From Escherichia phage BP32: a DNA stretch of 64,000 bases. Under the pieces are notes generated by a model that saw nothing but the letters and a program-made list of their open reading frames with translations, did not search any database and had not been told where the DNA came from. Each line of letters begins with the position of its first letter. Positions within the stretch are counted from its first letter, which is position 1. The position numbers were made by a program, and so were the translations under genes. Positions 13,027-56,777 of this stretch are shown here, piece by piece. The stretch lies in sequence record OR906198.1; one strand, 5' to 3'.

Positions 13027-13407
13027 ATGTATACTGGTAGAAAGTATGAACTTGTTCCAAGACTTATTGATACATTTATTAATTATAGCCCACGTTCTAA
13101 TTCATCAATAGTTAAAGCTATTCGAGATAATGGCGGATGGTTTGAAGTTAAAGAAGTTTCCGTCGCTAATGGATATAAAGCAGTAAAACACATTGAATGC
13201 GCAAATGGAAAACATTTTTACCTCAAAGATAGACTTTTAGAAATTTGTGAAGACGAATTTCATTGTTTTCGTGAGTATAAAGAACCGACTTCTGAAGAAG
13301 ATGAAGTCGAAGACAAGATTTCTGGCGTAACAAAAATTCACTGCATTGTTGACGAAAACAATGTAGATGAAATCATTGAACTTTTGCGAAAAACTTTCAA
13401 AAAGTAG
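13027..13407 (+). CDS. Hypothetical early protein (126 aa)
   Basis: ORF with GAGGA Shine-Dalgarno; packed in frd-upstream cluster. Confidence 0.6.
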   Translation: MYTGRKYELVPRLIDTFINYSPRSNSSIVKAIRDNGGWFEVKEVSVANGYKAVKHIECANGKHFYLKDRLLEICEDEFHCFREYKEPTSEEDEVEDKISGVTKIHCIVDENNVDEIIELLRKTFKK

Positions 13408-18821: not shown

Positions 18822-20000
18822 ATGAGCACAGTTTTTAATACAAACCCAGTTGATGTTTTAAAAGAACCTATGTTCTTCGGTTCAGGTCTTGGTATTGCGC
18901 GTTATGATATTCAACGTCATAAAGTTTTTGAAGATTTAACCGAAAAGCAGTTATCATTTTTCTGGCGTCCTGAAGAAGTAAACTTAATGATGGATGCTGC
19001 ACAATTTAACAAGCTTCCTCAGTATCAGCAAGATATTTTTACTAATAACCTGAAGTATCAATCACTTCTAGATAGCATTCAGGGTCGTGCACCGTCTGCT
19101 GTACTCATGTCGTTAATTTCAGACCCAAGTCTTGATACATGGGTTGCTACATGGACTTTTAGTGAAACTATTCACAGTCGTTCATACACTCATATTATGC
19201 GAAATCTTTATACTGATCCGTCAAAGGTATTTGATGAGATTGTATTAGATAAAGCTATCATGAAACGTGCTGAATCTATTGGTCGTTATTATGATGATGT
19301 TCTGGTTAAGACGCGCGAATGGGAAAATGCAAAAGAAATTTTTAAATGTTTTTCCGAAAATGAATATGATTTAGATGCATATTCAAATAGTCTTATGCAT
19401 GTGGAAGAATGTAAATATGCATTGATGAAGTCGCTTTATCTCTGCCTTCATGTTATCAATGCCCTGGAAGCTATTCGTTTTTATGTATCTTTCGCATGTA
19501 CCTTTAACTTCCATAAGAACATGGAAATCATGGAAGGTAATGCCAAGATTATGAAGTTCATTGCACGCGATGAACAGCTTCACCTTAAAGGCACCCAATA
19601 TATTATTCGTCAGCTTCAATCCGGTACTGATGGTGATGAATGGGTTAAAATTGCTCAAGAGTGTGAACAAGAAGCAGTTGATATTTTCATGGAAGTTAAC
19701 CGCCAAGAAAAAGATTGGGCAGTTCATTTATTTAAAGATGGCGATGTTCCTGGATTAAATACAAATAGCATGTGGAGCTTTATTGATTACTTAACTGTAT
19801 CTCGTATGAAACAGTGCGGTCTTCCATGCCCAATTACCGATGCTCCGGTTAAACATCCATATCCTTGGATTCGTGAATACCTTAATTCTGATAATGTTCA
19901 ATCCGCGCCGCAAGAAGTAGAACTGTCATCTTACCTTGTAGCACAGATTGATAATGATGTTGATGATAAAGTTATGATGAGTTTTAAAAAATATTTTTAA
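18822..20000 (+). CDS. nrdB: Ribonucleotide reductase small subunit, uninterrupted (no intron)
   Basis: 392 aa continuous ORF in T4 nrdB position. Confidence 0.92.
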   Translation: MSTVFNTNPVDVLKEPMFFGSGLGIARYDIQRHKVFEDLTEKQLSFFWRPEEVNLMMDAAQFNKLPQYQQDIFTNNLKYQSLLDSIQGRAPSAVLMSLISDPSLDTWVATWTFSETIHSRSYTHIMRNLYTDPSKVFDEIVLDKAIMKRAESIGRYYDDVLVKTREWENAKEIFKCFSENEYDLDAYSNSLMHVEECKYALMKSLYLCLHVINALEAIRFYVSFACTFNFHKNMEIMEGNAKIMKFIARDEQLHLKGTQYIIRQLQSGTDGDEWVKIAQECEQEAVDIFMEVNRQEKDWAVHLFKDGDVPGLNTNSMWSFIDYLTVSRMKQCGLPCPITDAPVKHPYPWIREYLNSDNVQSAPQEVELSSYLVAQIDNDVDDKVMMSFKKYF

Positions 20001-20004
20001 GGAG

Positions 20005-20027
20005 TGGGCCGCAAGGCCCATTTTATT
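20005..20027 (+). terminator. Hairpin tgggcc-gcaa-ggccca plus U-run between nrdB stop and denA start
   Basis: 6 bp GC stem with GNRA loop followed by TTTTATT, ending at the denA ATG. Confidence 0.5.
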
Positions 20028-21615
<1,588 letters not shown>

Positions 21616-21618
21616 ACT

Positions 21619-21648
21619 GTTTACAAGTCCCTCATGTTGTGTTATAGT
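21619..21648 (+). promoter_or_regulatory. T4-early-like promoter upstream of alc (GTTTAC ... TATAGT), part of a duplicated cassette
   Basis: GTTTAC 21619-21624, -10-like 21643-21648, 18 nt spacer. Confidence 0.5.
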
Positions 21649-21676
21649 AATCTTACTGACATAACATGAGGACTTT

Positions 21677-22183
21677 ATGATGGATTTACAGCTTATTACT
21701 ACTAAAATGGTCGTTGAAGCATATGGTGATACTACAGATGGGATTTCTGTATTTAAAGGAAATCGTCGAGTTGGATATATCACCGATCTTAAGAAAGATT
21801 TAGCTAAGCAAGTCAAGCGGAAAACGACCATTAAAGAATATCGAAATCGTCGTCTTGAGCAAGCCCGTGATATGCTTCCTGATGCGGTTGAGGAGATGAA
21901 AGTCTTTTTAGAAAATCAACTCGCTAAGTATGAGTGCGAAGTGTTCATTAATCAGACTCAGCCTAATGTTCATATCAATAGCTGCAAATGCTATATCATC
22001 GTTAATCCTTTGACAGGAAAACATCGTCTTGGAATTAGTAATCCAAATCGTAGTGCATCAGATATGGCAGAAGATGTTGCGGCATGCTTTAAAATTTCTA
22101 AATCTCCAGCTGAACATCATATTTTAATTAACGGTCTTTCTCAAGACGATATTATAGAGGTTATTAAAACTTTATGCAATTAA
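21677..22183 (+). CDS. alc: Alc (host transcription terminator acting on cytosine DNA)
   Basis: 167-168 aa ORF MMDLQLITTKMVVEAYGD... in T4 alc position and size. Confidence 0.85.
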   Translation: MMDLQLITTKMVVEAYGDTTDGISVFKGNRRVGYITDLKKDLAKQVKRKTTIKEYRNRRLEQARDMLPDAVEEMKVFLENQLAKYECEVFINQTQPNVHINSCKCYIIVNPLTGKHRLGISNPNRSASDMAEDVAACFKISKSPAEHHILINGLSQDDIIEVIKTLCN

Positions 22184-28429: not shown

Positions 28430-28462
28430 GTTTACAGTATAGTTCCTTTGTGATAGTATTAT
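28430..28462 (+). promoter_or_regulatory. T4-early-like promoter with tcctttgt/acaaagga inverted repeat around the -10
   Basis: GTTTAC 28430-28435; gatagtattat -10 region. Confidence 0.45.
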
Positions 28463-29288: not shown

Positions 29289-29903
29289 ATGTTTAAAGTT
29301 AATACTTTTTATAAAATGAATTTTAAAAATGGGGATATTACTCCACGCCTTAAAAACATGTTCTCATATGACCTTATCGAGCCTTTTGAAGTTTTAGAAG
29401 TTACTGATGCCGGCTCGGTTTGTGAAATTAGAACTTCTGAAGGTAAAATTTATCAGGCAGGTGTTGGTAAATTCAGTAATTGTTTTACTTTAATATTCTC
29501 GACCGATTTAGATGAGCATTTTATTGAATGTCCTAACCCTAAGGTCCACGAAGTTCCACATCAAGAAACTAAGAAAAATGGCCCGCACGAATATACGAAG
29601 GTTGAAACTCCTCACGGCGTGATGTGGCGTCATAACTCTCCTTTTGGAAGTAAAGGAACATTTGCTCAACCGTCTAAACCGTATGATGATGAAAAATACA
29701 TCGTCGTCTTTTTATCTGAACAGGGTACTCAAGACCGTGGATGCCAACGAAGTGGTTTACTAAGTGAACTTGAAGCTCATAACCAAGCACGTGAATTCGT
29801 TGAGAAAAATCCTGGTTCTGAAGCTCTAGTCATGAAAGCAATTACTCAATATATCACTGCTCAACCTGTTGTTCATCCGGTAGAAATTAATTTCGTTAAG
29901 TAG
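29289..29903 (+). CDS. Hypothetical protein (204 aa)
   Basis: ORF with GAGGAAA Shine-Dalgarno. Confidence 0.6.
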   Translation: MFKVNTFYKMNFKNGDITPRLKNMFSYDLIEPFEVLEVTDAGSVCEIRTSEGKIYQAGVGKFSNCFTLIFSTDLDEHFIECPNPKVHEVPHQETKKNGPHEYTKVETPHGVMWRHNSPFGSKGTFAQPSKPYDDEKYIVVFLSEQGTQDRGCQRSGLLSELEAHNQAREFVEKNPGSEALVMKAITQYITAQPVVHPVEINFVK

Positions 29904-33571: not shown

Positions 33572-33600
33572 AGGCCTTCGGGCCTTTAATTTTATAAATA
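33571..33600 (+). promoter_or_regulatory. Hairpin aaaggcc-ttcg-ggccttt followed by late promoter TATAAATA (33593-33600) upstream of alt
   Basis: Perfect stem plus exact late promoter motif about 25 bp before the alt ATG. Confidence 0.55.
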
Positions 33601-33623
33601 GAATAAACACTAGAGAGGATATG

Positions 33624-35717
33624 ATGGAACTCATTACAGAATTATTTGACGAAGATACTACTCTTCCGATTACAAACTTAAATCCAAAGAAGAAAATACC
33701 ACAAATTTTTTCAGTTCATGTCGATGACGCAATTGAACAACCAGGCTTTCGTTTATGTACCTATACATCTGGAGGTGATACTAATCGCGATTTAAAAATG
33801 GGCGATAAAATGATGCATATTGTTCCTTTTACATTAACTGCTAAAGGTTCAATTGCTAAATTAAAAGGTCTCGGTCCAAGCCCAATTAATTACATCAATT
33901 CAGTTTTTACTGTTGCAATGCAGACGATGCGCCAGTATAAAATTGATGCCTGCATGCTTCGTATTCTTAAGTCTAAAACTGCTGGTCAAGCTCGACAAAT
34001 TCAAGTTATTGCTGATAGACTTATCCGTAGTCGTTCAGGTGGCAGATACGTCCTTCTTAAGGAACTCTGGGATTATGATAAAAAGTATGCATATATTCTT
34101 ATACATCGCAAAAATGTATCACTAGAAGACATTCCAGGAGTTCCGGAAATTAGTACCGAGCTCTTTACTAAAGTTGAATCGAAGGTCGGCGATGTTTATA
34201 TCAATAAAGATACCGGAGCTCAAGTAACTAAAAATGAGGCAATTGCAGCATCTATTGCACAAGAAAATGATAAACGTTCTGACCAAGCTGTTATTGTTAA
34301 AGTTAAAATTTCCCGTAGAGCAATTGCACAAAGCCAGTCATTGGAATCTTCTAGATTTGAAAGCGAATTATTCCAGAAGTATGAATCTACTGCAGCTAAT
34401 TTCAATAAACCTGCTACAGCTCCTTTAATTCCCGAAGCAGAAGAAATGAAGCTTGGAATTAATTCATTAGCTTCTAAAACTAAGGCAGCAAAAATTATTG
34501 CCGAAGGAACCGCAGATGAACTTCACTATGACTATAAATTCTTTTCAAAAAGTGAGGTTAATGAAGTTTCTGAAAAAATTAAAGATGTAATTCTTAATGC
34601 GATTAAAAATGAACCAACTACTTCAATAAAATGTTTAGAGAAATACGCAGCAGCTGTTAATAAATTCTTTGAAGAATATAAAGATAATTGGCTTGATAAA
34701 CATAATAAAACCCGTAAAGGACAGCCAGATGAAGTCTGGGAAGAAATAACTAAAAATTCCTGGAACGCAGCAAAAACTAAATTCCTCAAACGAATGATTT
34801 ATAGCTTTTCTGGAATTGGTGCAGGTCCAATGATTGATATTACTATTGCCCGTGATGGTTCTAAATATACCCCATCGCAAAAGCGCGGCATTAGAGAGTA
34901 TTGTGGATCAGGATATACTGACATCAATAATCTTCTTTTAGGCCGCTACAATCCAGAACGATATGATGTAATGAGTGAAAAAGAAATTGAATCTGCGATA
35001 AATAATTTAGATTCAGCCTTTGAAAATGGTGACCGTATACCAGAAGGCATTACAGTTTATCGTGCTCAAAGTATGACTGCTCCTATATACGAAGCACTAG
35101 TTAAAAATAAAGTGTTCTATTTCAGAAATTTTGTATCTACTTCTTTAACTCCTATCATTTTTGGACGTTTTGGAATTACACATGCTGGTATCGGTCTTTT
35201 AGAACCAGAAGCTCGTAATGAATTAACAGTTGATAAAAATGAAGAAGGAATAACTATTAATCCAAACGAAATAAGAGCGTATAAAGAAAATCCTGAATAC
35301 GTTAAAGTTCAAATAGGATGGGCAATTGATGGAGCTCATAAAGTTAATGTTGTATATCCAGGAAGTCTCGGAATAGCAACTGAAGCTGAAGTTATTCTAC
35401 CGCGCGGATTGATGGTCAAAGTTAATAAAATAACTGATGCTTCTAATAATGACGGAACAACAACTAATAATACAAAACTCATTCAAGCTGAAGTTATGAC
35501 TACGGAAGAACTCACCGAATCAGTAATTTATGATGGTGACCGTCTAATGGAAACTGGTGAAGTAGTTGCAATGACAGGTGATATTGAAATAGAAGACAGA
35601 GTTGACTTTGCATCATTTGTTTCATCAAATGTTAAACAAAAAGTAGAATCATCTCTTGGAATTATTGCGTCTTGCATAGATATTACAAACATGCCTTACA
35701 AGTTCGTTCAAGGATAA
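33624..35717 (+). CDS. alt: Alt-family mono-ADP-ribosyltransferase, copy 1 (packaged internal head protein)
   Basis: MELITELFDEDTTLPITNLNPKKKIPQIFSVHVDD N-terminus matches T4 Alt; ART motifs VYRAQ, FVSTS, TEAEVILPRG. Confidence 0.9.
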   Translation: MELITELFDEDTTLPITNLNPKKKIPQIFSVHVDDAIEQPGFRLCTYTSGGDTNRDLKMGDKMMHIVPFTLTAKGSIAKLKGLGPSPINYINSVFTVAMQTMRQYKIDACMLRILKSKTAGQARQIQVIADRLIRSRSGGRYVLLKELWDYDKKYAYILIHRKNVSLEDIPGVPEISTELFTKVESKVGDVYINKDTGAQVTKNEAIAASIAQENDKRSDQAVIVKVKISRRAIAQSQSLESSRFESELFQKYESTAANFNKPATAPLIPEAEEMKLGINSLASKTKAAKIIAEGTADELHYDYKFFSKSEVNEVSEKIKDVILNAIKNEPTTSIKCLEKYAAAVNKFFEEYKDNWLDKHNKTRKGQPDEVWEEITKNSWNAAKTKFLKRMIYSFSGIGAGPMIDITIARDGSKYTPSQKRGIREYCGSGYTDINNLLLGRYNPERYDVMSEKEIESAINNLDSAFENGDRIPEGITVYRAQSMTAPIYEALVKNKVFYFRNFVSTSLTPIIFGRFGITHAGIGLLEPEARNELTVDKNEEGITINPNEIRAYKENPEYVKVQIGWAIDGAHKVNVVYPGSLGIATEAEVILPRGLMVKVNKITDASNNDGTTTNNTKLIQAEVMTTEELTESVIYDGDRLMETGEVVAMTGDIEIEDRVDFASFVSSNVKQKVESSLGIIASCIDITNMPYKFVQG

Positions 35718-35720
35718 ATC

Positions 35721-37778
35721 ATGGAACTTATTACAGAATTATTTGACGGCGCTTCGGCGCCGGTTGTTAACTTAAATCCTAAGCATAAAATACCTCAAAT
35801 TTTTGCTATTCAAGCCGGTGAAGAAAGCGTGCTTCCTGGATTTAGATTTTGTACATACACCTCTGGCGGTGATACAAATAAAAACGTTAAGCCAGGCGAT
35901 AAAATGATGCATATCGTAATGATAGGCGTTAATGAGAAACTATCATTAGTTAAACTTAAAAACTTGGGTGGAAATCCAATTGGTGTCATTAATGCGGTTT
36001 TTGATACTGCTCTTCAAACAATGAAGCAGTATAAAATTGACGCATGTCTATTCCGCGTACTAAAGAGTAAAACAAACGGTGCAGGTCGGCAAATGCAAGT
36101 TATTGCCGACCGTTTAGTACGTACTAAAGGAGCAGGTCGATATGTTCTTTTAAAAGAAATCTGGGACTATGATAAAAAATATGCATATATTATGGTTTAC
36201 CGTAAAAATGCCAATTTAGAAGACATTCCAGGTGTACCTCCTATTTCAACTGAGTTATTCACAAAAGTTGAATCAAAGGTTGGTGATGTTTATGTAGACG
36301 TTAAAACAGGTAATGCTGTTCCTAAAGCTGTCGCTGTTGCTGCTTCTATTGCTTTAGAAAATGATAAGCGCACGGATCAAGCTGTTATTCAGAAAACTAA
36401 AATTAGTCGTCGATTAGCAGCTCAAGCTCAATATTCTACTGTCGATGCTTCACTTCAGGGTGATAGCTTCGCTGCTAAGAAATATCAAGAGTTTGAATCT
36501 AAAGTTCCGGTATATAAAGCAGAAGGACCAATGAACTCTGGCGTTATTCAGGTTGGTTCAAACTTCAGCAAAGGAGCTATCGGTGGTATGAGAAGTGCTT
36601 CTCGTTTTAAATCTAGTGATTATGAACTCGAAAGCTTCCGAAATCATATTGCATTGGCTCATGCACGTTTACGTGATCCATCTATCAAGTTACAGAGCGA
36701 TATAACATATCAAGGTTCTCAAGAATATTTAAAGAATAAAGAATTTTTTGATTATAAAACTGATAAAATTTTAAGCGATCTTGCTGACATTAATATTTCT
36801 AATAGCTTTGATGTTATTAAGAAAATTGTCAATGATTTAGTTAAAGGTTCTAAAGCCACACCAGATGAAAAGGTAGCTATTGTTCAATTTGTCATGAATG
36901 GCGTTTATAAATTGATTAATGAGTCTGCTTCTCAAGCGTATGAATATGCAAGTACTGAAGTAACTCCAAAAGGATTAACTCAGGCTGAGTCTGATGTAAT
37001 TGAAGATTATTGTGCAGATTCATATGTTGAAATGAACTCGTTCCTTTTAGGTAAACCGGATTCTACCCGTGAAGAATATATGGAACGAGCTATTAAACAC
37101 ATCGAGACAATGGATTCTGCCTTTGCCAAAGGGTCAGTTCTTCCTCCAGGAACTACGCTTTACCGTGGCCAAGAAGTTACCTTTAAAACTTTACGTCATA
37201 ATATTGAAAATAAAATGTTCTATTTCAAGAACTTCGTATCCACATCACTTAAACCAAATATCTTCGGTGAGTATGGTAAAAACTATATGGCCCTAGATGA
37301 TTCCAGTGCAGTATTTTCTGGTGAAGGAGAAGGTTCAGTTGATGCTGAAGATTTAATGCATATGGGTAGTCATTCTGCATATGCTAATGAAGATGCTGAA
37401 ACTAGCGTGGGTATGGTAATTAAAGGAGCTGAGCGAATCAAAGTTATCGTTCCAGGTCATTTATCAGGATTTCCATCAGAAGCTGAAGTTATTTTACCGC
37501 GTGGAATTTTGCTGAAGATTAATAAAGTGAGTACGTACATGATGAAAGAAACTGCTTATAACAAGTATCTAATAGAAGGCACAATCGTTCCTCCTTCTGA
37601 ACAATTAGAAGAATCGGTATATGACGGCGACCATCTAATGGAAACTGGTGAAGTTCGTCCAATGGCTGGATTTAATCAATTCCTTGTAGAAGAATCAAAA
37701 GAAGAGGAAAACGAAGTTTCTCAAATCTTGGCTTCTTTGGTTAACATCAACGGAATGTCTAAAAAGTTCAAAATGTAG
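35721..37778 (+). CDS. Alt-family mono-ADP-ribosyltransferase, copy 2 (diverged paralog)
   Basis: MELITELFDGASAPVVNLNPKHKIPQIF N-terminus; ART motifs LYRGQ, FVSTS, SEAEVILPRG; central region diverged from copy 1. Confidence 0.85.
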   Translation: MELITELFDGASAPVVNLNPKHKIPQIFAIQAGEESVLPGFRFCTYTSGGDTNKNVKPGDKMMHIVMIGVNEKLSLVKLKNLGGNPIGVINAVFDTALQTMKQYKIDACLFRVLKSKTNGAGRQMQVIADRLVRTKGAGRYVLLKEIWDYDKKYAYIMVYRKNANLEDIPGVPPISTELFTKVESKVGDVYVDVKTGNAVPKAVAVAASIALENDKRTDQAVIQKTKISRRLAAQAQYSTVDASLQGDSFAAKKYQEFESKVPVYKAEGPMNSGVIQVGSNFSKGAIGGMRSASRFKSSDYELESFRNHIALAHARLRDPSIKLQSDITYQGSQEYLKNKEFFDYKTDKILSDLADINISNSFDVIKKIVNDLVKGSKATPDEKVAIVQFVMNGVYKLINESASQAYEYASTEVTPKGLTQAESDVIEDYCADSYVEMNSFLLGKPDSTREEYMERAIKHIETMDSAFAKGSVLPPGTTLYRGQEVTFKTLRHNIENKMFYFKNFVSTSLKPNIFGEYGKNYMALDDSSAVFSGEGEGSVDAEDLMHMGSHSAYANEDAETSVGMVIKGAERIKVIVPGHLSGFPSEAEVILPRGILLKINKVSTYMMKETAYNKYLIEGTIVPPSEQLEESVYDGDHLMETGEVRPMAGFNQFLVEESKEEENEVSQILASLVNINGMSKKFKM

Positions 37779-37807
37779 TTTACAAGTCCCTCGTGTTGTG
37801 TTATAAT
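37778..37807 (+). promoter_or_regulatory. T4-early-like promoter (GTTTAC ... TATAAT), second copy of the duplicated cassette
   Basis: GTTTAC 37778-37783, TATAAT 37802-37807, 18 nt spacer. Confidence 0.5.
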
Positions 37808-37838
37808 AATCTTACTGACATAACATGAGGAACACAAA

Positions 37839-38129
37839 ATGAAATCTTCTTTACGCTTTTTAGGTCAAGAACTCGTAGTTGAAGGCGTTATTCCTGCTGA
37901 TAACGCTTTTAATGAAGCAGTTTATGATGAATTTATCAAAATTTTTGGAACAGATAAAAAGTTCGGAATTTTTCCTTCTGAAAATTTTTCAAAGCCAGAA
38001 CAGACTGAAAGCATTTTCCAAGGTGTAGTAACAGGTAAATTTGAGTCAGAAGCTCCGGTAAAAATTGAAGTTTATATTGAAGACAGTTTAGTTGCTTCAG
38101 TTGCTGCTTTTATTTCATTCCGTAAATAA
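37839..38129 (+). CDS. Hypothetical protein (96 aa)
   Basis: ORF with GAGG Shine-Dalgarno downstream of the cassette. Confidence 0.55.
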   Translation: MKSSLRFLGQELVVEGVIPADNAFNEAVYDEFIKIFGTDKKFGIFPSENFSKPEQTESIFQGVVTGKFESEAPVKIEVYIEDSLVASVAAFISFRK

Positions 38130-38133
38130 AAAC

Positions 38134-38155
38134 ATGGGGACCGAAAGGTCCCCAT
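38134..38155. terminator. Bidirectional hairpin terminator between plus-strand ORF and gene 54
   Basis: atggggacc-gaaa-ggtccccat flanked by A-run and T-run. Confidence 0.7.
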
Positions 38156-50644: not shown

Positions 50645-51649
50645 ATGTTTAAAAAGTATAGCAGTCTTGAAAATCATTACAATTCTAAATTCATTGAAAA
50701 ACTTTACAGTTTAGGATTGACTGGCGGCGAATGGGTAGCTCGTGAAAAGATTCATGGCACAAATTTCTCACTGATTATTGAACGCGATAAAGCAACTTGT
50801 GCTAAACGTACTGGACCGATTCTTCCTGCTGAAGATTTCTTTGGGTATGAAATTATTCTAAAGAATTACGCTGATTCCATTAAAGCAGTACAAGATATTA
50901 TGGAAACTTCGGCAGTTGTATCTTATCAAGTCTTCGGCGAATTCGCTGGACCTGGCATTCAGAAGAATGTCGATTATGGCGATAAAGATTTTTATGTATT
51001 TGACATTATTGTTACTACCGAAAGTGGTGATGTGACTTATGTCGATGATTATATGATGGAATCATTCTGTAATACATTCAAATTTAAAATGGCTCCACTT
51101 TTGGGTCGTGGTAAATTTGAAGAACTTATTAAATTGCCAAATGATTTAGATTCTGTCGTCCAGGATTATAATTTTACAGTAGACCATGCTGGATTAGTTG
51201 ATGCAAATAAATGCGTTTGGAATGCTGAAGCAAAAGGTGAAGTATTTACCGCTGAAGGTTATGTATTGAAACCTTGTTATCCTTCTTGGATGCCTAACGG
51301 AAATCGTGTAGCTATTAAATGCAAGAACTCTAAATTTAGTGAAAAGAAAAAGTCTGATAAGCCTATTAAAGCTAAAGTTGAGCTGTCAGAAGCTGATAAT
51401 AAATTGCTGGGAATTTTAGCTTGCTACGTTACACTGAACCGGGTAAATAACGTTATTTCTAAAATTGGCGAAATTGGTCCAAAAGATTTTGGAAAGGTGA
51501 TGGGACTAACTGTTCAAGATATTTTGGAAGAAACTTCTCGTGAAGGTATTACTTTAACTCAAGCGGATAATCCTTCCTTGATTAAGAAGGAATTAGTTAA
51601 AATGGTACAAGATGTACTTCGTCCGGCTTGGATTGAATTGGTAAGTTAA
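50645..51649 (+). CDS. rnlB: RNA ligase 2
   Basis: [43 protein letters not shown] with KxHGxN nucleotidyltransferase motif matches T4 Rnl2; 334 aa. Confidence 0.95.
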
Positions 51650-51653
51650 ATAA

Positions 51654-51680
51654 AAAGGGACCGAAAGGTCCCTTTGTTTT
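51654..51680. terminator. Bidirectional hairpin terminator between rnlB and gene 24
   Basis: aaaagggacc-gaaa-ggtcccttt flanked by A and T runs. Confidence 0.75.
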
Positions 51681-52962: not shown

Positions 52963-52989
52963 TGCGCTTTCCTTTTGGTTTATATGATT

Positions 52990-52997
52990 TATTTATA
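52990..52997 (-). promoter_or_regulatory. T4-type late promoter TATAAATA for gene 24
   Basis: Exact motif on minus strand about 30 bp upstream of gene 24 start. Confidence 0.6.
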
Positions 52998-53012
52998 CCA
53001 TAAAAACAACTA

Positions 53013-53032
53013 AAGGGACCCGAAGGTCCCTT
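53013..53032 (-). terminator. Hairpin terminator downstream of gene 23
   Basis: aagggacc-cgaa-ggtccctt perfect 8 bp stem after gene 23 stop. Confidence 0.65.
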
Positions 53033-56533: not shown

Positions 56534-56777
56534 TATTCATCATCCTCGTCTTCGTCATCTTCATCAGAGTCTTTGTCTTTTTTGTCTTCTTTATCATCAC
56601 TATCTTCGTCTTCATCATCCTCGTCTTCAGGTTCTTCACCTTCGATTAAGAAATTACGAGCGATAGCGATTTTTTCTTCTTTAATTAAATCAATCGTTCT
56701 TGCAGCCATGGCTTCAGCAAATAATTTACGAGCGGCTACGAGGTCGTTTGATTTAATAGCTTCAATTAAACCTTCCA

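Follow-up and report, generated by a model that had tools for sequence, protein, structure and literature searches.

Twin early-promoter cassettes upstream of alc and alt.-3 in a T4-type phage carry a predicted translation-gating RNA helix and show signs of ectopic exchange

We analyzed a stretch of 64,000 nucleotides from Escherichia phage BP32 (sequence record OR906198.1), hereafter the window, which contains two near-identical copies of a 54-nt cassette, one upstream of alc and one upstream of alt.-3. Over 2 kb, the window shares 97% identity with Yersinia phage ZN18 and with many T4-like coliphages, which assigns it by sequence to Tequatrovirus. Our preferred reading, to which we give a probability of about 0.6, is that the cassettes are the early promoters of the two genes and carry an RNA helix gating translation, that they are kept alike by ectopic non-crossover recombination, and that their design, in which the promoter spacer pairs with the Shine-Dalgarno (SD) sequence and thus acts as an anti-SD, is ancestral at alc. 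RNA reading through from upstream would carry both arms of the helix, so that the SD would be buried and the downstream gene left untranslated. The read-through sources would be the nrd-denA-rnlA transcripts for alc and the late alt mRNA, from TATAAATA at 33593, for alt.-3. RNA from the cassette's own sigma-70 early promoter would start in the loop, lack the 5' arm and keep its SD free, which would confine translation of the two genes to the few minutes in which early promoters are active. The anti-SD design would have been copied from alc to the alt.-3 promoter in the Tequatrovirus lineage, with the copies still exchanging.

The repeat is real and non-random. Copy A, the 54-mer GTTTACAAGTCCCTCATGTTGTGTTATAGTAATCTTACTGACATAACATGAGGA, recurs only once in the window, with 2 mismatches (52/54 positions identical), and no match to it was found in 100 dinucleotide-preserving shuffles. 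An independent repeat search returned the same pair (family D9, 96% identical, 16,159 nt apart). Similarity is lost abruptly at both ends of the cassette, where the flanks are identical at 14/40 positions in the 40 nt upstream and at 9/40 in the 40 nt downstream, and the unit therefore spans exactly the G of GTTTAC to the GAGGA SD. The two copies are the following.

21619..21672, + strand: cassette copy A, from the -35 of the alc early promoter through the SD, between the rnlA stop codon (21613-21615) and the alc ATG
37778..37831, + strand: cassette copy B, from the -35 of the alt.-3 early promoter through the SD; its first base is the final base of the upstream TAG stop codon

A first-pass annotation of this DNA had described a cassette of about 56 bp present twice, each time directly before an open reading frame (ORF). 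Both points stand, with the unit now measured at 54 nt and the second copy, with its two mismatches, at 37778-37831; the ORFs start at the ATG at 21677 or 21680 (alc) and at 37839 (alt.-3). The same annotation had proposed a T4-early-type promoter with an 18-nt spacer. The promoter type was correct, and the spacer, which had been counted from GTTTAC, is of 17 nt when counted from TTTACA.

Both copies are, by sequence definition, T4-type early (sigma-70) promoters of alc and alt.-3. The promoter scan identified TTTACA-17-TATAGT in copy A (21620-21648) and TTTACA-17-TATAAT in copy B (37779-37807), with TGn preceding the -10 hexamer in both, and the cassette reads as TTTACA, 17 nt, TGn, TATAGT/TATAAT, 5' untranslated region (5'UTR) and GAGGA. 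T4 early promoters are defined by a strong UP/-35/TGn/-10 layout (PMC2988021, PMC1524935). The -35 GTTTAC(A/T) is found at 21619-21625 and 37778-37784, and the spacer of 17 +/- 1 nt, the TGn and the TAnnnT are present in both copies. Where an A/T-rich UP-like region would be expected, around -40 to -60, copy B has CTAAAAAGTTCAAAATGTA directly upstream, and copy A has only CTACTAAACT, with an A-rich tract lying farther upstream. The cassettes resemble the canonical T4 early promoters in their GTTTACA, in the TAnnnT -10, in the 17-nt spacer with its GT-rich stretch and TGn, and possibly in an A-rich upstream region. They differ from them in the role of the spacer, usually described as promoter only, which is here also an arm of a conserved RNA helix. 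A "predicted early promoter" was annotated independently at both sites in phages fPS-90 and fPS-65. A T4 NAD-cap study that gives 150 T4 start sites from dRNA-seq has alc among the validation targets of its qPCR primers (bioRxiv 10.1101/2024.04.04.588121). The elements of the two promoters and of the helix that surrounds them are listed here.

21620..21625, + strand: -35 TTTACA of copy A (GTTTAC from 21619), from the promoter scan
21626..21642, + strand: 17-nt spacer AGTCCCTCATGTTGTGT of copy A, the 5' arm of the hairpin, with the anti-SD CCTC and ending in TGn
21643..21648, + strand: -10 TATAGT of copy A, in the hairpin loop, from the promoter scan
21655, + strand: predicted transcription start of copy A, the A in CTTAC, 7 nt after the -10, placed by the position rule and the CTTAC(A/T)C motif
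21658..21675, + strand: 3' arm GACATAACATGAGGACTT of copy A, from RNA folds, including the SD GAGGA (21668-21672)
37779..37784, + strand: -35 TTTACA of copy B, from the promoter scan
37785..37801, + strand: spacer and 5' arm AGTCCCTCGTGTTGTGT of copy B, from the RNA fold
37802..37807, + strand: -10 TATAAT of copy B, from the promoter scan
37817..37831, + strand: 3' arm GACATAACATGAGGA of copy B, including the SD GAGGA (37827-37831); the predicted start is at 37814

In the predicted RNA fold, GUCC(C)UCAUGUUGUGU pairs with ACAUAACAUGAGGAC in a stem of 15-16 bp that includes G.U pairs and a single bulged C. Its 5' arm is made by the promoter spacer and its 3' arm by the 5'UTR with the SD, which leaves the -10 and the predicted start in the loop. 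The inverted repeat cctcatgtt/aacatgagg noted around the -10 in the first-pass annotation is part of this structure, but the RNA pairing is far longer than its 9 bp. In 81-nt windows, the hairpin has a free energy of -28.1 kcal/mol in copy A (z -5.3) and of -21.4 kcal/mol in copy B (z -4.25). The duplex between spacer and 5'UTR is worth -21.2 kcal/mol in copy A, a value equalled by 1 of 500 spacer shuffles, and -20.8 kcal/mol in copy B, equalled by none of 500. The complementarity of the copy A spacer with the region from -10 to +30 was likewise equalled by 0/300 shuffles. RNAs beginning near the predicted start fold like shuffles (z -0.6 and -0.3). The left arm of copy B reads cctcGtgtt where copy A has cctcatgtt, a change that is a mismatch in DNA and a G.U pair in RNA. 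The dependence of the pairing on G.U, together with this A-to-G difference between the copies that retains a G.U pair, points to the sense-strand RNA rather than to the DNA. The CTTAC(A/T)C motif found around the predicted start is present in many such early promoters across genera, as well as at 28430 in the window; in the cassette (positions 34-46) it forms, with the GT-rich stretch before the -10, an inner GUGU/ACAC segment of the helix.

The same layout is found upstream of alc in six relatives (Dhakavirus, Gelderlandvirus, Karamvirus, Klebsiella phage Lion, Bragavirus, and Marfavirus), namely GTTTACA, a left arm with an anti-SD (CTCC/CCTC), the -10, and a right arm ending in the SD. In each of them the left arm begins at the first spacer base, right after TTTACA. 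The arms of the alc hairpins (left/right) are as follows.

Dhakavirus: TCTCCTCAT/ATGAGGAGA
Gelderlandvirus: TCTCCGTTTAGT/ACTAAACGGAGA
Karamvirus: TCTCCATTTG/CAAATGGAGA
Klebsiella phage Lion: TCCTCATCAG/CTGATGAGGA
Bragavirus: ACCTCTCATTTT/AAAATGAGAGGT
Marfavirus: CCTAGTTTGTT/AACAAACGAGG

The inner stem sequences vary among these phages, yet they match within each phage. The cognate duplexes between spacer and 5'UTR at alc range from -11.7 to -22.1 kcal/mol and are equalled by 0-5 of 500 spacer shuffles. We assessed co-variation by comparing the energies of cognate and non-cognate duplexes, with a permutation of the arms. Across the seven genera the mean duplex energy at alc is -18.4 kcal/mol for cognate pairs vs -9.3 kcal/mol for non-cognate ones, and the cognate assignment ranks first among all 5040 permutations. 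A column-wise covariation analysis on a MAFFT alignment was dropped because the register of the helix relative to the -35 and the SD differs between genera, such that fixed columns would miscount, whereas a hand-fitted alignment would be circular. A search of the whole window with the Rfam covariance models gave no match at the gathering score, and only chance-level matches at copy A. Since the arms change while staying complementary and the pairing needs G.U, the object under selection is, as judged from these comparisons, a sense-strand RNA helix and not a protein-binding DNA palindrome. One could think of an element acting at the DNA level, either a cruciform that modulates promoter opening or an operator bound by a protein dimer, for example one that helps to shut off early promoters, given that the repeat overlaps the core promoter and that the shut-off mechanism of early promoters is described as incompletely understood (PMC3014915). 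We regard it as highly improbable, since full pairing would require G.T mismatches in DNA, the spacing between the arms is not constant, and arms that differ across genera yet stay complementary are the mark of a nucleic-acid helix, not of a protein site.

The layout is not universal at alc. The alc loci of Acinetobacter phage Ac42 and Aeromonas phage phiAS4 have no clear GTTTAC promoter of this design. In Gaprivervirus (VR7, PSD2001) a short ORF annotated as an alc fragment precedes alc, instead of rnlA and the promoter cassette, which suggests a local rearrangement at the alc junction in this genus too.

The prediction that the helix gates translation depends on which RNAs reach the cassettes, and hence on the genes and signals around them. 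Early transcription runs along the + strand. Copy A lies between rnlA (gene 63) and alc, in the order rnlA, alc, pseT.3, and copy B lies between the second full-length alt paralog and alt.-3.

20491..21615, + strand: rnlA (gene 63, RNA ligase 1), with Pfam RNA_lig_T4_1 and T4_Rnl1_C, upstream of copy A
21677..22183, + strand: alc (inhibitor of host transcription), Pfam PF17527 (E 3.9e-90) and T4 annotation; it has two in-frame ATGs, at 21677 and 21680, the latter being the start annotated in T4
33593..33600, + strand: late-promoter motif TATAAATA, just upstream of alt
35721..37778, + strand: second alt paralog (ADP-ribosyltransferase), Pfam PF03496, directly upstream of copy B
37839..38129, + strand: alt.-3 (DUF5498, 96 aa), Pfam PF17602 (E 1.4e-64) and T4 annotation
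38134..38155, no strand assigned: terminator-like hairpin, bidirectional, that follows alt.-3; downstream of alt, no other terminator-like site comes earlier

The terminator scan revealed no terminator-like site between rnlA and alc, nor between alt and alt.-3. Together with the late-promoter motif upstream of alt, this implies that long RNAs should run into both cassettes, and the TATAAATA at 33593 is the likely source of the late read-through RNA arriving at copy B. In read-through RNA the predicted probability that the SD is unpaired is 0.001 for both copies. In the RNA made from the own promoter it is 0.50 for alc and 0.14 for alt.-3. The predicted start lies 3 nt before the 3' arm, so transcripts initiated there would lack the 5' arm. 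Because the 5' arm would be present only in read-through RNA, translation of alc and alt.-3 is predicted to be restricted to the early period. On this modeling, the helix probably acts as a translational gate.

An intrinsic terminator was also considered for the cassettes and rejected, as the terminator scan is empty at both sites, there is no U-tract after the stem of copy B, and copy A is followed by a weak UUUAU only. A related possibility is that the hairpin mainly serves the upstream RNA, by protecting its 3' end from exonucleases or by attenuating read-through, and that the burial of the SD is incidental. The UUUAU that follows copy A is in line with this, as are the other promoters of the window. 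We scanned the + strand of the window for GTTTAC-N17-TAnnnT and found nine sites, six of which (13407, 21619, 24942, 28430, 28822, and 37778) have a spacer complementary to the region from -10 to +30, with duplexes of -11 to -21 kcal/mol that are equalled by at most 2 of 300 shuffles. The right arm includes an SD (AAGGAG) at 28430 and lacks one at 13407, 24942, and 28822, which shows that promoter-embedded hairpins exist without SD occlusion. Such hairpins may therefore be general among these early promoters, with SD occlusion as one of their uses. Still, we find it unlikely that the upstream RNA is the main beneficiary at alc and alt.-3, since upstream of alc the right arm ends in the SD and the left arm carries the anti-SD in all seven genera, and copy B lacks a U-tract. 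The hairpin could in any case fill both roles.

Translational gating of this kind has known counterparts in T4. The SD of e (lysozyme), soc, 49, and I-TevI is sequestered in transcripts coming from upstream, while an internal late promoter yields translatable RNA (PMC3014915). In our models the cassette is functionally closest to this gate. In both cases the SD is in a helix in the upstream RNA and the promoter is inside the helix region, such that its own transcripts are without the 5' arm, as is predicted here. SD sequestration is found by prediction, and the loss of the 5' arm follows with the start placed as above. The only feature of the known gates that is lacking is the late promoter, as there is no TATAAATA in the cassette. 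The known gates use a late (gp55) promoter and give late-only expression, whereas the cassette has a sigma-70 early promoter, would give early-only expression, and uses as 5' arm the promoter's own -35/-10 spacer. We found no description of an early-promoter version of the gate, or of the alc/alt.-3 twin, in the accessible literature, which largely excludes the older T4 work, and a prior description is possible.

We then turn to the similarity between the two copies, which differ by 0 to 6 positions when taken from the same genome. Among 30 copies there is no fixed difference between the alc and the alt.-3 cassettes. Nine sites segregate at each locus, five of them (positions 15, 16, 19, 29, and 32) are common to both with the same alleles, and identical haplotypes are found at the two loci. 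The distance per 54 nt is 2.86 between alc copies, 3.14 between alt.-3 copies and 2.91 between the loci in the eight genomes retrieved without pattern bias, to which this test was limited. A permutation gave no locus differentiation (3393/5000 permutations at or above the observed value). The five common polymorphisms and the absence of fixed differences indicate, at the level of sequence, ectopic gene conversion between the two loci. The suggestion of the first-pass annotation that the pair could be a substrate for homologous recombination is in agreement with these observations, including a distance between loci no larger than that between orthologues. The pattern fits occasional ectopic conversion combined with frequent recombination between phages rather than strict homogenization.

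The copies flank 16 kb that include genes 30 and 31. A crossover between them would cause the loss or duplication of 13-16 kb with these essential genes. Hence, considering the established genetics of T4, it is likely that only non-crossover conversion survives. As in other cases of concerted evolution by ectopic gene conversion, we observe no fixed differences, shared polymorphisms, and as much distance between copies as within them. The difference with the concerted evolution of dispersed repeats is that the tract is only 54 nt long, coincides exactly with a regulatory cassette and belongs to a virulent phage.

Within the cassette, positions 41-53, which correspond to the right arm and the SD, are invariant in 30/30 copies and position 54 varies in one. 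The remaining variation in Tequatrovirus is confined to the left arm and the loop, and the changes in the left arm are mostly C>U or A<>G, which keep the pairing as wobble, in a sample too small for significance. One could argue from the invariant right arm, and from the constraints of strong promoter and SD that act on both copies, that these are two independently conserved promoters, originating in an old duplication or by convergence, which are alike by identical constraint with no ongoing exchange. This is very unlikely in our opinion. The loop and the non-consensus positions are identical as well, the loci share the same two alleles at five sites, have no fixed differences and carry identical haplotypes, the stems of the window's other early promoters with this design are unrelated, and alt.-3 has a different design in other genera.

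This different design informs the direction of copying. In Dhaka-, Mosig-, Marfa-, Moon-, and Karamvirus, the GTTTACA before alt.-3 is followed by a mini-hairpin of 4-6 bp located wholly within the spacer, with a GGA-containing loop. The anti-SD pairing is weak or absent at alt.-3 in these genera; that of Moonvirus is partial (-12.5 kcal/mol, equalled by 6/500 shuffles). No mini-hairpin was found at alt.-3 of Kanagawavirus PEi20. The mini-hairpin design of the 17-nt spacer occurs in relatives upstream of both alt.-3 and alc, and also at 29903 in the window, and its stems co-vary (CCACA/TGTGG, TCCAC/GTGGA, CACAC/GTGTG, ACACC/GGTGT). Most genera have the anti-SD type at alc and the mini-hairpin type at alt.-3; the two loci are both of the anti-SD type in Tequatrovirus and both of the mini-hairpin type in Mosigvirus (two phages). 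The simplest reading of these sequences is that there were two independent cassette replacements, one in Tequatrovirus and one in Mosigvirus. Given the different alt.-3 promoter design of the other genera, Tequatrovirus probably copied the alc cassette onto alt.-3, a direction and a mechanism that we infer from this distribution. The sequence identity of the Mosigvirus alc cassette favors the alt.-3 type by a small margin (0.73-0.79 vs 0.72), too small for an assignment by identity alone, which we dropped. We hold only loosely that this cassette is of the alt.-3 type, on the grounds of its architecture more than of its identity.

Exchange between loci raises the question of mobility. The first-pass annotation compared the cassettes with the mobile promoter-stem-loop elements (PeSLs) of T4-type phages. 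In PeSLs a stem-loop that functions as a terminator precedes the promoter, and the elements are numerous, clustered in hyperplastic regions and flank variable ORFans and indels (PMC2839356, PMC4122927). Their promoter consensus in PST/T4 is TTTACW-N17-TAYWAT (PMC4122927, PMC2839356). Like PeSLs (Arbiol 2010; Comeau 2014), the cassette is a short and sharply bounded composite of strong early promoter, stem-loop and SD or start codon, its promoter fits the consensus, and sequence exchange between its copies is indicated. If it were a PeSL-type mobile cassette, it would move between sites or form mini-circles, causing neighboring genes to be inserted, deleted or replaced. The sequence exchange between the two loci, the replacement, in Tequatrovirus and apparently also Mosigvirus, of the promoter design of either alc or alt.-3, and the homology of less than 50 bp that suffices for recombination in T4 (PMC2839356) are compatible with this view.

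The distribution of the cassette points the other way. BLAST identified it at 997 places in 499 phage records, which is essentially two per genome, and the copies that we inspected were all (30/30) upstream of alc or alt.-3. T4 itself has both copies (AF158101, 136283-136336 and 123040-123093, minus strand). No third locus was found in the phage collection, in IMG/VR, in the JGI metagenomes, or in 185,579 bacterial and archaeal genomes (GTDB). The last three collections, which held too few T-even contigs to add much, gave 7 loci (IMG/VR), 6 (JGI), and 0 (GTDB), all on Tequatrovirus contigs and linked to alc or alt.-3. The sole genome with three copies is that of Escherichia phage vB_EcoM-G28 (NC_054916.1), where a 351-bp tandem duplication (19669-20073 of the extracted stretch) covers the 3' end of rnlA, the cassette and the 5' end of alc, and yields a truncated alc ORF together with the third copy. 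We rejected this copy as a case of mobility because its junction, a short stretch of microhomology within coding sequence, falls outside the cassette, so that the duplication is not cassette-mediated. The duplication may also be an assembly artefact.

These results speak against a mobile element. Two of the features that define a PeSL are present, the early promoter and the 3' SD and start, and two are absent, the upstream terminator stem-loop and the many clustered copies. Instead of forming an upstream terminator, the stem encloses the -10 and has the SD at its end, copy B lacks a U-tract, the two copies are at fixed syntenic sites beside conserved genes and not ORFans, no rearrangement bounded by the cassette was seen, and a crossover over the 16 kb with genes 30 and 31 would result in the loss of essential genes or in an oversized duplication. 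Driving of local rearrangements by a mobile PeSL-type cassette is therefore quite unlikely, and the resemblance to PeSLs proposed by the first-pass annotation is only a loose one. It had called for a search for the cassette at non-syntenic positions, none of which turned up. Confinement to two syntenic sites without sign of mobility, which it had itself named as evidence against its reading, is largely what we observe.

Several points weigh against our reading of translational gating and ectopic exchange. The transcription starts, at 21655 and 37814 from the position of the -10, the translation and the RNA structure are all predicted. In the RNA from the own promoter of alt.-3 the SD pairs weakly with downstream sequence, hence its probability of 0.14 of being unpaired, although the structure is worth only about -2 kcal/mol. 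The AUG is mostly unpaired in read-through RNA (probability of about 0.6), and gating may thus be leaky. The alc of Mosigvirus lacks the anti-SD hairpin, so that at least one genus does without this gating. Within Tequatrovirus, the variation of the stem is all in the left arm, with two changes that create C.A (T14C and T19C) and no compensatory double changes. Concerning the exchange, the paired genomes numbered only 8-10, and some of the copies came from pattern searches in which certain positions were fixed. Finally, the shared polymorphisms are all transitions and could partly be due to recurrent mutation at weakly constrained sites.

Other repeats were found in the window. The alt paralogs are full-length and in tandem (33621-35717 and 35721-37778), with about 70-80% identity in repeated stretches (families D1, D7, D8, D11, and D17), and in T4 the second alt copy is reduced to the remnants alt.-1/alt.-2. 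A GC-rich hairpin, GGGACC(G)AAAGGTCCC, following A/T-rich sequence is present in three copies (family D2; 38106-38152, 51626-51672, and 52984-53030), and the terminator scan rates the hairpin at 38134-38155, which separates alt.-3 from gene 54, as a bidirectional terminator. At 56536-56638 there is a short, imperfect tandem or direct repeat, TTCATCATCCTCGTCTTC... (family D3), whose minus strand probably codes for an acidic stretch of low complexity.

Gating, if real, would explain how an early-only gene stays silent when the genes directly before it go on being transcribed at middle or late times, and alc and alt.-3 would be silenced without a terminator between genes. It would add an early-only version to the late-only principle of e, soc, 49, and I-TevI, and would imply that a promoter spacer can bear a second, RNA-level code. 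The pair is also a clean natural case of gene conversion limited to a 54-nt regulatory cassette, which bears on the exchange of regulatory modules between phages and is relevant to phage engineering with portable, insulated expression cassettes. Since T4 carries both copies, the predictions are directly testable in this phage. More tentatively, and with less confidence than we give to the reading of the two cassettes, T4-type early promoters could commonly be promoter-in-hairpin modules, in which the -35/-10 spacer supplies the 5' arm of a helix confined to read-through RNA, that bury the next SD or cap the upstream RNA, and that are swapped by ectopic conversion, from alc to alt.-3 in Tequatrovirus and from alt.-3 to alc in Mosigvirus. 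If this were true, the insulation of early genes and the exchange of regulatory cassettes would have a previously undescribed layer in the best-studied family of virulent phages.

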